A DNA stretch of 8,258 nucleotides from a virus (Monodnaviria > Loebvirae > Hofneiviricota > Faserviricetes > Tubulavirales > Inoviridae): positions 1 through 8,258 of IMG/VR virus record IMGVR_UViG_2609459832_000001. The stretch is one strand, 5' to 3'. The notes under the pieces are model-generated. The model searched no databases, was not told the DNA's origin, and saw nothing but the letters and a program-made list of their open reading frames with translations. A program made the position numbers and the translations under genes. This document shows positions 7,447-7,628 of this stretch, piece by piece; position 1 is the stretch's first letter, and each line of letters opens with the position of its first letter.

Positions 7447-7628
7447 GCTCCGCGGTTAAAAATTAAACGATAGTTTCGGGGGCGTCGCTGTCTGTCTGAA
7501 CAACAGCCGCACCGCCCTCGCTCCTGTCGTTGTCGGCGTCCTCCTCCCGTCGTCCTTCTCCGCCTCCACTCGCTGCGGTGCGGTACGGCTGAGGTCAGGA
7601 CATTTGCATCGCTAACTTAAGGGGAAGA

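Follow-up and report, generated by a model that had tools for sequence, protein, structure and literature searches.

The origins and packaging signals of filamentous phages have been mapped experimentally in very few cases, mainly Ff (M13, f1, and fd), IKe, and the Xanthomonas phage phi-Lf. In M13, the (+)-strand origin reads GAGTCCAC-GTTCTTTAATA-GTGGACTC and then TTGTTCC-AAAC-TGGAACAA. These two adjacent hairpins are known as hairpins D and E or loops A1 and A2, and loop A1 alone is enough for gpII to nick supercoiled DNA (PMC11765958). IKe carries annotated viral-strand origin stem-loops at 6554-6599. Directly upstream of the (+) origin on the viral strand, Ff and IKe carry a minus origin consisting of a double hairpin (B and C), and their packaging signal, hairpin A, follows right after gene IV. 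In phi-Lf, the functions of four stem-loops (SL1-SL4) have been mapped experimentally (bioRxiv 10.1101/2023.12.30.573655). They form a compact run of viral-strand hairpins in which the nick site is accompanied by a short hairpin for packaging and by a 'key binding' hairpin that includes a GCGNAGC mini-hairpin. This sets a precedent for integrative inoviruses that cluster origin and packaging signals.

Here, we examined an 8,258-nt window (positions 1 to 8,258 of IMG/VR record IMGVR_UViG_2609459832_000001) that represents a dif-integrated E. coli inovirus. Its only phage-database matches are If1 and the Alteromonas phage phiAFP1. All structural and replication genes of the phage lie on the window minus strand, which aligns to the If1 plus strand and corresponds to the packaged (+) strand. 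A sequence-only reading had singled out a C/T-rich tract at 7450-7628 with two preceding hairpins, located between an HTH gene and a small ORF, as the best origin or packaging candidate. We find that this region is composed of two unrelated features meeting at a module boundary, i.e., a hairpin cluster and a pyrimidine-rich tract, and that the best origin candidate here is the hairpin cluster rather than the tract. The hairpins form the outer edge of a replaceable gpII-type replication module, and the tract makes up the opening ~100 nt of a constant assembly/attP backbone that is common to phages with Rep_trans (L007) or Phage_GPA (L079) replication modules. Homology to the L007 type resumes at 7504 and to the L079 type at 7487, within or at the end of a spacer (7458-7503, assigned to neither strand) that closes the replaceable module. 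The stretch 7460-7540 folds with z = -2.5 in the window versus +0.3 in L005, the closest diverged copy; a candidate hairpin at 7468-7533 was discarded, as it is not kept in L005.

The replication module encodes a gpII-type initiator of an If1-like subgroup (5595-6722, minus strand; Pfam Phage_CRI and G2P_X_C) that is 80% identical to If1 ORF320 and that we propose as the partner of the hairpin element. An HTH_3 regulator gene (6906-7394, plus strand) runs antisense to the phage genes. The hairpin element begins 4 nt past its stop codon, and every relative examined likewise has the end of the module's last antisense-strand gene next to the element. On the backbone side, two inverted dif-like sites around a GC-rich hairpin (7796-7912, minus strand) constitute a candidate attP of the CTX-phi style. 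In the packaged strand this candidate folds as a ~100-nt near-perfect hairpin (dG = -43.7 kcal/mol, z = -11.5), the most stable ssDNA structure of the backbone. The two sites agree with E. coli dif at 20/28 and 16/28 positions. Relatives adjoin hipBA.

Folded as ssDNA, the minus strand at 7393-7462 is markedly structured (z = -4.9; 0/200 shuffles as good). The two hairpins that had been placed at 7399-7446 were accurately located, but a third had been missed, so that three minus-strand hairpins occupy 7398-7457. On the (+) strand, hairpin hp2 (7420-7445) reads GTTCGGG-AGTTCTGTGACA-CCCGAAC, a 7-bp stem with a 12-nt loop. It is followed by a linker (7418-7421, minus strand) that, together with the last bases of the hp2 3' arm, reads AC-TTT-(A/G), and then by hp1 (7398-7417, minus strand). 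The latter has an 8-bp stem with a GAAA loop on the plus strand, i.e., TACCGTGG-TTTC-CCACGGTA followed by TTTTT on the (+) strand; a terminator-like site is reported here on the minus strand. The third hairpin, hp3 (7443-7457, minus strand), overlaps the base of hp2 and has a core of the GCG-GNA-CGC type on the (+) strand, reading GCGGAGC in the window and GCGAAGC in most enterobacterial relatives. It is clade-specific, being missing or replaced in phiAFP1 and in a gut-metagenome group. The layout of the other two is an hp2 with a 7-bp stem and 11-12 nt loop, a 3-nt linker, and an hp1 with a 7-8 bp stem and 4-6 nt loop. An Rfam search of both strands at E <= 1 returned no known RNA family.

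The hairpin element is highly conserved and common to well over 100 related phages. Window positions 7393-7454 share 96.8% identity with If1 5052-5112, located within the 'major intergenic region' of If1, and the hairpin segment is 90% identical in phiAFP1, though the Rep of that phage is only 51% identical. The element is also kept in pNAD1 of H. ducreyi, a replicon with a gpII-type Rep, gV, and regulator but no assembly genes, which 'can replicate as a plasmid'. Accordingly, the hairpins are present in related functional replicons, as the origin proposal had anticipated. A motif scan recovered the element in 59 IMG/VR contigs, and all 69 motif instances have the same orientation relative to a gpII-family Rep, none of them with a Rep_trans gene. 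Retrieval by Rep homology, a route that does not depend on the motif, recovered it in 47 of 53 loci, at a distance of 180-760 nt upstream of Rep. For the If1-like Rep type, this distance is 350-760 nt in nearly all loci. Of the six loci without it, four have upstream sequences of 368 nt at most, and another is If1, in which an IS intervenes; approximately 47 of 49 If1-like Rep loci with adequate upstream sequence carry the element. Overall, it lies 180-1180 nt upstream of a gpII-family Rep in fixed orientation, with If1 (owing to the IS) and loci cut at a contig end as exceptions. It never occurs with Rep_trans or GPA modules; L003/L004-type phages, however, have it together with their I2-2-like gpII. 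No other non-coding island is conserved between the window and distant If1-like phages. The element apparently has not been described before: neither the hairpin nor the tract sequence was found in any paper of the literature searched, and the UPphi and phiAFP1 papers contain no discussion of origins.

Within the element, the components are constrained in different ways. In hp1, structure is kept and sequence is free, with about 25 different stems found. Across 39 non-redundant elements, hp1 pairing holds in 95.9% of cells versus 70.7% after shuffling (0/500), and six of its seven pairs are changed on both sides; controls slid along the sequence pair at 32-49%. The linker, by comparison, is identical in every intact element recovered, including those fetched by Rep homology rather than by motif. 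The hp2 stem has three compensatory variants (GTCCGGG/CCCGGAC, GTCCGAG/CTCGGAC, and GTTTGGG/CCCAAAC), and the 3' half of its loop, (A/T)GT(G/T/A)AC, is conserved. We considered hp1 as a determinant of Rep specificity and rejected this idea: Reps that are 95% identical to that of the window carry different stems, and a 51%-identical Rep carries the same stem.

These features resemble the Ff (+) origin in several respects. Both are located on the viral strand upstream of a gpII-family gene, for the window element in non-coding DNA upstream of a Phage_CRI plus G2P_X_C initiator gene, and both consist of two adjacent hairpins. In both, a first hairpin with a stem of 7-8 bp and a loop of 11 nt is followed after 0-3 nt by a second one with a stem of 6-8 bp and a 4-nt loop; hp2 and hp1 thus match the layout of a nick hairpin with a 9-12 nt loop and a short second hairpin. 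A comparison of M13 with IKe likewise shows conservation of the first hairpin and compensatory substitutions in the second. By analogy, we propose that hp2 is the nick-site hairpin of a (+)-strand origin, comparable to Ff hairpin D (loop A1), and that hp1 is its auxiliary second hairpin, comparable to hairpin E (loop A2). The resemblance does not extend to sequence. Alignable positions are limited to 8 of 11 loop bases of the enterobacterial variant, in a part of the loop that itself varies within the family, and we detected no homology to the Ff/IKe nick region (TTCTTT^AATAGTGGACTC). When the fetched loci were searched for the hairpin-E pattern of Ff, IKe, and I2-2, only M13, IKe, and I2-2 matched. 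The window element also differs in being separated from gII by one to three antisense genes, and no A+T-rich enhancer was identified. With phi-Lf, it shares the compact run of viral-strand hairpins and the GCGNAGC-like mini-hairpin; phi-Lf, however, has a Rep of another family (CTTG nick motif) and no sequence in common, and its functions are mapped experimentally rather than predicted from sequence.

A further hairpin pair, found at 2666-2703 in I2-2 and at 5490-5545 in the UPphi-like prophage L004, shows the same two-hairpin layout, an invariant first and a covarying second hairpin, and the same position just after an antisense regulator gene. It differs in its loop, GT(T/A)(G/T)GTAAT, which is nearer to the IKe and M13 nick loops, and in its association with the classical gpII subgroup. 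UPphi-like prophages of the L003/L004 type carry the hairpin element alongside this Ff-like pair of their own.

Taken together, we consider it somewhat probable that the hairpins are the (+)-strand origin core of the gpII-type module. The cluster at 7398-7457 on the packaged strand would then act in cis as the replication origin: Rep would nick hp2 in the supercoiled replicative form, either in the loop or in the invariant ACTTT linker, and thereby prime rolling-circle synthesis, after which the regenerated hairpin would be cleaved again and ligated. In this mechanism hp1 would serve as an auxiliary hairpin required for its structure only. Nicking at hp2 is what we infer from the Ff parallel. 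A (+) origin in the intergenic region between Rep and the regulator was rejected, as this region is unconserved and holds regulator-specific operator repeats. Several observations run counter to a (+) origin. In UPphi-like prophages, the element accompanies an I2-2-like gpII that can barely be aligned to the window Rep, where it would be either a relic or an element with a Rep-independent role; relic origins do persist, since I2-2 keeps a truncated IKe-type origin beside its own hairpin pair. The resemblance between the hp2 loop and the M13 nick loop (8/11 bases) resides mostly in the 5' half, which is unconserved across the family, and hp1 does not follow Rep similarity. Moreover, two Rep_1 plasmids, L072 and L082, have a CTTGATA motif of their own, the pC194-type nick site, and nonetheless carry the element beside an Ff-type minus origin, a context that suits a role as single-strand origin at least as well.

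The main rival, which we regard as unlikely, is accordingly that the element is a complementary (minus)-strand origin or single-strand initiation signal, in which the hairpins escape SSB coating when the viral ssDNA enters and attract a priming enzyme of the host, whichever Rep is encoded. Its association with two barely alignable gpII subfamilies fits this idea, as does the selection of hp1 for structure only. In UPphi-like prophages, the element lies upstream, on the viral strand, of the Ff-like pair, i.e., in the position of the Ff minus origin, which in the window is held by the tract. The integrative prophages all lack an Ff-type minus origin and therefore need another one, hp3 is a viral-strand mini-hairpin of the GCGNAGC type, and in L072 and L082 the element has the same polarity as the genuine Ff-type minus origin beside it, as in a cluster of single-strand origins. 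There is, however, no similarity to Ff hairpins B and C, a fuzzy search for which matched only M13, IKe, I2-2 (partially), L072, and L082, and the 7-8 bp stems are too short to accommodate the two promoter-like boxes (-35 and -10) mimicked in the Ff and IKe minus origin. Signals of the G4 ssi type combine SSB-resistant hairpins with a conserved 5'-CTG-3' primase start, the recognition trinucleotide of DnaG. Here, CTG occurs in the enterobacterial hp2 loop GTTCTGTGACA but is lost in the variants GGCCAGTGACA, GTTCAGTGACT, and TTCTAGTGACA. A minus origin would also be hard to reconcile with the almost perfect tie of the element to gpII-type modules and its absence from Rep_trans and GPA modules on the same backbone, and it would leave the If1-like clade without a conserved non-coding candidate for the (+) origin. 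We consider it very improbable that the hairpins have no part in replication and act only as terminators or insulators where phage-sense and regulator-sense transcription converge. In most relatives hp1 does look like an intrinsic terminator for phage-sense transcription: a T-run follows it on the phage-sense strand in the window and, from reading flanks rather than from a formal count, in roughly two thirds of relatives. TTTTTT follows hp2 on the regulator-sense strand in the gut-metagenome group and pNAD1, and the last regulator-strand gene invariably has its 3' end directly beside the element. Yet many copies have no T-run on either strand, and an invariant linker and 11-12 nt loop, 90-100% conserved from Escherichia to Alteromonas and Haemophilus, would be superfluous in a terminator.

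The hp2-ACTTT-hp1 element offers a precise origin candidate of ~50 nt for the If1-like gpII clade as a whole, with members from Escherichia, Haemophilus, and Alteromonas as well as gut metagenomes, and could underlie phagemid-type vectors for non-Ff inoviruses. The element is also usable as a sequence marker for the replication module and its remnants, including those in plasmid records. At the level of modules, the map locates recombination, with the hairpins edging a swappable cassette and the tract, small ORF, and attP candidate on the constant backbone.

The second feature, the pyrimidine-rich tract, is real but narrower than the 7450-7628 first proposed, a span that is only 55.9% C+T. The tract proper covers 7504-7581 on the plus strand and extends to ~7598, with a conserved core at ~7525-7598 and a bracketing inverted repeat (7504-7515/7580-7591). 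At 0.80, the pyrimidine fraction of its best 60 nt is the maximum for the window (mean 0.49, sd 0.085), and the segment 7510-7572 consists of 51% C, 27% T, 19% G, and 3% A. As 2 of 300 first-order Markov simulations of the window also reach 0.80, the skew is real but not extreme. Because the pyrimidine-rich strand is the complement of the packaged strand, the viral ssDNA is purine-rich at this site. An analogy to the pyrimidine tract in the Ff intergenic region thus has the wrong polarity, that tract lying on the viral strand in M13 and IKe. The fold of 7504-7628 is not significant (z = -0.25; 80/200 shuffles as good). We found no tandem repeat in the tract and no sigma-70 promoter near it. 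No ORF with a start codon crosses it on either strand, in agreement with the initial impression of a non-coding region; all three minus-strand frames are open through the tract only because that strand is almost devoid of T. A coding tract was rejected on these grounds and since a 1-nt indel shifts the frame between lineages. A Rho-utilisation (rut) site comprises some 80 nt of unstructured RNA rich in C and poor in G. The tract is unstructured with C about 2.5 times as frequent as G, yet it falls outside the top five C>G windows of the sequence; with this unremarkable C/G ratio, a Rho-loading role is unsupported.

The tract was detected in 22 of 5426 E. coli genomes. The window-type Zot gene is found on exactly these 22 chromosomes and, in addition, on a circle of 9.6 kb. 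All 23 records with this gene have the tract, a co-occurrence that spans three Rep families. In conflict with the initial proposal, the tract is absent from If1, phiAFP1, the UPphi-like prophages L003 and L004, L006, L008, and most other relatives. A second lineage (L159/L160) has a diverged tract with about 55-60% identity, estimated by eye from an alignment, and a shared 12-mer, CGTCCTCCTCCC. As in the window, no other 60 nt of the contig are as rich in pyrimidines (0.73); the diverged tract has no fold (z = +1.2) and lies just upstream of a homologous small ORF. As all known copies of the tract belong to two lineages only, its conservation is weakly informative. Its polarity is constant in all five sequence contexts.

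The tract is probably not an origin. Most likely, judging from its position, it represents the C/U-rich untranslated leader of a small membrane-protein gene on the regulator-sense transcript. This small ORF (7629-7802, plus strand, antisense to the phage genes) encodes 57 aa with one predicted transmembrane helix and a basic tail. It is a real backbone gene, with the protein conserved in the second lineage (30% identity, with a common ILDLLMK motif). It has no Pfam match, and we found no wider family in species-representative genomes and only two E. coli lineages among 5.8 billion proteins. A leader is at odds with plasmids L072 and L082, which keep the tract core in the same strand polarity, and with the best closing stem, in the absence of the small ORF. 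For the two features jointly, hairpins as the (+)-origin core and tract as the small-ORF leader, we regard the chances as evenly balanced.

It is possible, if doubtful, that the tract has no function and is either a decayed low-complexity coding remnant or the stretch at which homology restarts after module-swapping recombination. The tract shows strong triplet periodicity, with G at codon position 1 in 58% of codons of one phage-sense frame versus 26-36% in the real genes of the window. The Gly/Glu/Asp-rich peptide specified by this frame is reminiscent of the linkers in gIII of the same phage. In L079 the tract is spanned by a phage-sense ORF of 152 aa, and the window copy is interrupted by one in-frame TGA at 7595-7597. 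In addition, a comparison of window-type with L007-type phages shows the core to be conserved no better than the adjoining small ORF and attP region. A coding remnant does not readily explain the 1-nt indel that shifts the frame between lineages with the surrounding conservation intact, nor does lack of function account for a pyrimidine bias that is kept in the diverged L159 lineage despite sequence change, or for a core that survives with sharp boundaries in unrelated plasmids. Alternatively, the tract could be a packaging (morphogenetic) signal or a backbone complementary-strand origin that acts in cis on the packaged strand, which would take the form of a ~90-nt imperfect hairpin with a variable closing stem and an invariant purine-rich interior. 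We judge this distinctly unlikely. Across three Rep families, the tract and the window-type assembly gene have identical distributions, and, like Ff hairpin A, the tract travels with assembly genes. Its polarity is fixed, also in L072 and L082. Physical linkage alone could, however, trivially explain the co-inheritance. On the viral strand it lies immediately upstream of the hairpins, where Ff has its minus origin and packaging signal. Unlike hairpin A, however, it lies far from gene IV on the viral strand: the attP region and the small ORF intervene, and the distance exceeds 700 nt. All seven variants have a closing stem, which reaches 13 contiguous bp in the plasmids; one pair is compensatory, and the L007 type shows paired changes specific to its lineage. 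Thermodynamically, the fold nevertheless has little or no support (7504-7628, z = -0.25; trimmed variants, z = -0.3 to -3.4), the covariation term is close to zero, and the diverged L159 tract does not fold. Hairpin A, by contrast, is long, stable, and imperfect, and the backbone offers far better hairpins in the attP region and at terminators. On its own, the tract would be of little importance unless it does serve as a packaging signal.

The plasmids that retain pieces of this system provide further context. L072 (from E. coli 16F5M1D1) and L082 (from E. albertii) are 2.7-kb Rep_1 rolling-circle plasmids that combine, within 500 nt and in one polarity, an Ff-type minus origin with three further segments, namely the gpII-type hairpin element, a double hairpin of the Rep_trans type, and the tract core. 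These three correspond exactly to the non-coding parts of the two phage variants that have this virion backbone in common. That these plasmids act as natural 'phagemids' is an improbable idea. If so, the two double hairpins would be Rep-specific (+) origins, either phage variant would replicate and export the plasmid, and the unstructured purine-rich tract would constitute a new kind of filamentous-phage packaging signal that is read by sequence rather than as a hairpin. The host strain of L072 also carries the prophage.

In total, 439 plasmid records match the hairpins. An ssi signal of conjugative-plasmid leading regions was rejected on a sample, as 3/3 inspected contexts were not leading regions. 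Two of the matching plasmids, L071 (IncF) and L073 (IncHI1), contain inovirus remnants in which the hairpins adjoin a cargo gene, and in each an IS end disrupts hp1; the third context is the small Rep_1 plasmid L072. L071 also has a dif-like site after the cargo gene.

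Every recognisable phage gene of the window lies on its minus strand: the secretin (437-1657), the Zot/gpI-type assembly ATPase (1667-2923), the coat genes with a gIII-like adsorption protein (3293-4618), a gene V-type ssDNA-binding protein (5309-5581) and a gpII-family initiator, Rep (Phage_CRI plus G2P_X_C; 5595-6722). The plus strand carries an HTH_3 regulator (6906-7394) and a small ORF for a 57-aa membrane protein (7629-7802). Because the minus strand aligns with the viral (plus) strand of If1, a related phage, it is the packaged strand.

The sequence-only reading had proposed an origin or packaging region at 7450-7628, described as C/T-rich on the plus strand, free of convincing ORFs and preceded by two hairpins (7399-7446). 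That span is merely 56% pyrimidine as a whole; the true tract occupies 7504-7581, reaching ~7598. Its 80% C+T over 60 nt is the maximum of the entire window, a value attained in 2 of 300 Markov simulations, and no ORF with a start codon crosses it. The hairpins were correctly placed (hp1, 7398-7417; hp2, 7420-7445), and a third (hp3, 7443-7457) is also present; on the packaged strand, the cluster has z = -4.9 (0/200 shuffles as good). Folding the tract as ssDNA, by contrast, predicted no structure (z = -0.25), and neither strand of the region matched Rfam. Among related phages, If1 and the Alteromonas phage phiAFP1 contain the hairpins but not the tract. The proposal therefore pointed to the right neighbourhood, that of the hairpins, but to the wrong feature: the tract is a real compositional feature, yet it is unstructured, lineage-restricted and derived from another module.

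That the hairpins constitute a genuine cis element is strongly supported. If1 5052-5112, within the annotated 'major intergenic region', is 96.8% identical to window 7393-7454, and phiAFP1 reaches 90% over the same segment although its Rep is just 51% identical. Motif scans of IMG/VR recovered the element (hp2, linker and hp1) in 30 + 29 contigs, and its orientation relative to the gpII-family Rep is identical in all 69 instances. A second retrieval by Rep homology, which avoids motif circularity, yielded 53 loci, 47 of which have the element 180-760 nt upstream of Rep; of the six misses, four have at most 368 nt of sequence upstream, one is L145 and one is If1, whose Rep and element are separated by an IS200/IS605-type insertion. 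Across this set, the 3' half of the hp2 loop and the ACTTT linker are unchanged, while the hp2 stem shows compensatory variants (GTTCGGG/CCCGAAC, GTCCGGG/CCCGGAC, GTCCGAG/CTCGGAC and GTTTGGG/CCCAAAC). hp1 occurs as ~25 distinct stems that are nearly always paired (95.9% of cells versus 70.7% when shuffled, 0/500; slid controls, 32-49%), with both sides changed in 6/7 pairs. hp3, a GCGNAGC-type mini-hairpin on the viral strand, is confined to the enterobacterial group. The element sequence was not found in the literature searched and appears undescribed.

Annotation of the If1 locus (NC_001954) deserves comment, as its 'major intergenic region' is not intergenic: 5113-7086 holds an antisense ribbon-helix-helix-type regulator gene ending beside the hairpins and the apparent IS200/IS605-type element, whose ORF348 (starting MLILKAYKFRLEPTPEQ) looks TnpB-like by eye. 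ORF320, a gpII-type Rep, is annotated with a truncated 5' end. In phiAFP1, the interval directly after the Zot gene (385-725) contains the motif GGTACTAAAA four times as well as a perfect hairpin of 48 nt; these may represent iterons or operators plus a packaging-type hairpin.

We lean towards the hairpins being the (+) origin that serves the replication module of the If1-like gpII group. They form its sole conserved non-coding island; the Rep-regulator intergenic regions show no conservation and contain regulator-specific repeats. Their layout, in which a short hairpin with a covarying stem follows a conserved one whose loop is 11-12 nt, is that of known gpII origins, as compared with hairpins D/E of M13, the stem-loops annotated as the IKe viral-strand origin and the hairpin pair of I2-2 and the UPphi-like prophages. 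Nicking of supercoiled DNA by M13 gpII needs no more than the first loop (PMC11765958). The element is also found on pNAD1 (NC_005329.1), the NAD-independence plasmid of Haemophilus ducreyi, a defective inovirus that replicates as a plasmid: coat gene, gV-like gene, gpII-type Rep, regulator, a DUF2726 gene, the element, a dif-like inverted repeat and nadV are present, one cargo gene among them; it has no assembly genes, and gIII, gVI and gI are missing. Identification as a (-) origin, which we regard as rather improbable, draws on the UPphi-like prophages, where the element is paired with an I2-2-like gpII hardly alignable to the window Rep and lies upstream, on the viral strand, of their own Ff-like hairpin pair. 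It also draws on two Rep_1 plasmids (L072 and L082), in which the element sits beside a true Ff-type minus origin despite their own CTTGATA motif, the pC194-type nick site. The UPphi-like objection to a (+) origin is softened by I2-2, which retains a truncated IKe-type origin (2555-2576) beside its own hairpin pair and thus sets a precedent for relic origins after module exchange. Against a (-) origin, the hp2 loop shows no conservation of CTG, at which primase starts, and Ff hairpins B/C share no homology with the element.

Termination may be an added function of the hairpins, since hp1 of the window is followed by a T-run on the phage-sense strand, as it is, with flanks read by eye, in roughly two thirds of relatives. 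As their only role, it cannot account for a loop and linker that are invariant from Escherichia to Alteromonas and Haemophilus; terminator-only and other functions share what probability the two origin readings leave. A packaging signal is unlikely, because the element accompanies many unrelated assembly modules and is missing from phages of the L007 type, which encode a Rep_trans initiator together with a Zot and a secretin that match those of the window at 99-100% identity. The pair in I2-2 (2666-2703) and the UPphi-like prophage L004 (5490-5545), conserved as ACGTGCAGT-GTTGGTAAT-ACTGCACGT followed by GTCTCA-TTCC-TGAGAC or GTACCA-TTCG-TGGTAC, is a candidate (+) origin for I2-2-type gpII.

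Matches to the element also occur in 439 plasmid records, including 390 conjugative ones. This suggested a leading-region ssi signal, but none of three inspected contexts (L071, L073 and L072) is a leading region. L071 (IncF, NZ_CP026940.2, 6001-7124) and L073 (IncHI1, NZ_CP044968.1, 4860-5935) represent inovirus fragments in decay, with a cargo gene directly after the hairpins; the two cargo genes encode an STM4504/CBY_0614-family protein and a Shedu nuclease. The same IS end replaces part of hp1 in both, an ISNCY-family transposase adjoins in L073, and a dif-like site follows the cargo gene in L071. The slot separating the hairpins from attP seems to accommodate defence genes as cargo. L072 (NZ_AP019859.1) and L082 (NZ_CP117653.1) are 2.7-kb rolling-circle plasmids whose Ff/IKe-type minus-strand origin aligns to hairpins B and C of M13/IKe with 82% column identity; minus origin, gpII-type element, tract core and a Rep_trans-type double hairpin lie within 500 nt in a single polarity (800-1350 in L072). 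The L072 host strain also harbours the prophage.

The tract follows the backbone. Mapping window segments onto relatives placed it in L005, L007 and a few others, and found it absent from the UPphi-like prophages L003 and L004 and from L006 and L008, as from If1 and phiAFP1. Of 5,426 complete E. coli genomes, 22 have its core; those 22 chromosomes, plus one 9.6-kb circular record, are also the ones with the window-type Zot gene, and the tract lacks Zot in two plasmid records only, each from a prophage-bearing strain. The window shares 1-5220 and 7504-8258 with L007-type phages, and 437-5271 and 7487-7802 with the Phage_GPA phage L079. Between these limits lie three alternative, unrelated replication cassettes: one combines gpII and the hairpin element, one combines Rep_trans and another double hairpin (GGAAAC...GTTTCC and CCCCCGT...ACGGGGG), and one has Phage_GPA. 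Since cassettes swap between shared limits, the cassette/backbone boundary lies between hairpins and tract. G+C in the window cassette is 0.32-0.37 across ~5200-6400, much below the 0.45-0.62 of the backbone.

Close variants of the tract are likewise unstructured. An inverted repeat surrounds the core (7504-7515 with 7580-7591), and a closing stem can be drawn in 7/7 variants; it reaches 13 contiguous pairs in the plasmids and one of its pairs is compensatory, but covariation contributes about zero and z-scores range from -0.3 to -3.4. Triplet periodicity is strong and the phage-sense frame is Gly/Glu/Asp-rich, but it lacks a start codon and the lineages differ by an indel that shifts the frame, and an ORF here is probably spurious. 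On the minus strand of 7462-7795 this frame, antisense to the small ORF, runs on through the tract with one interrupting TGA (7595-7597); L079 (8196-8654) has AGA instead, giving a 152-aa ORF. In a second small-ORF lineage (L159/L160), an L007-type Rep_trans cassette sits on a backbone that lacks assembly genes of the window type. A diverged tract there shares the 12-mer CGTCCTCCTCCC with the window, has the highest pyrimidine content of any 60 nt in its contig (0.73), is likewise unstructured (z = +1.2) and lies immediately upstream of a small-ORF homolog (30% identity, with the ILDLLMK motif in common). The tract thus keeps its composition, its lack of structure and its place relative to the small ORF while the sequence drifts, which points to a transcript role rather than an ssDNA hairpin signal. 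We tentatively suggest, on comparative grounds, that the tract could be a C/U-rich leader on the regulator-sense transcript; confidence is low because no promoter is evident nearby, its Rho-loading signature is not outstanding, and L072/L082 keep the core but lack the small ORF. That the tract has no function is somewhat less probable, and a packaging signal or minus origin is doubtful.

The window is an integrative inovirus located at the chromosomal dif region. Inverted dif-like sites (7807-7834 plus, 7873-7900 minus) flank a perfect GC-rich hairpin, and on the packaged strand 7796-7912 forms a ~100-nt hairpin (dG -43.7 kcal/mol, z = -11.5), resembling the CTX-phi-type attP that is built by ssDNA folding. 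The arrangement recurs in phiAFP1 and pNAD1. hipBA adjoins close relatives of the window, and tandem copies are frequent. The end of the window is a diverged second copy of its start (1-230 versus 7955-8208, and 7897-7945 versus 8205-8250; ~75-85% identity by eye), with a terminator-like hairpin repeated at 1-70 (z = -4.1) and 7950-8020 (z = -4.9). This arrangement suggests that the region downstream of the secretin gene is a tandem or duplicated junction.
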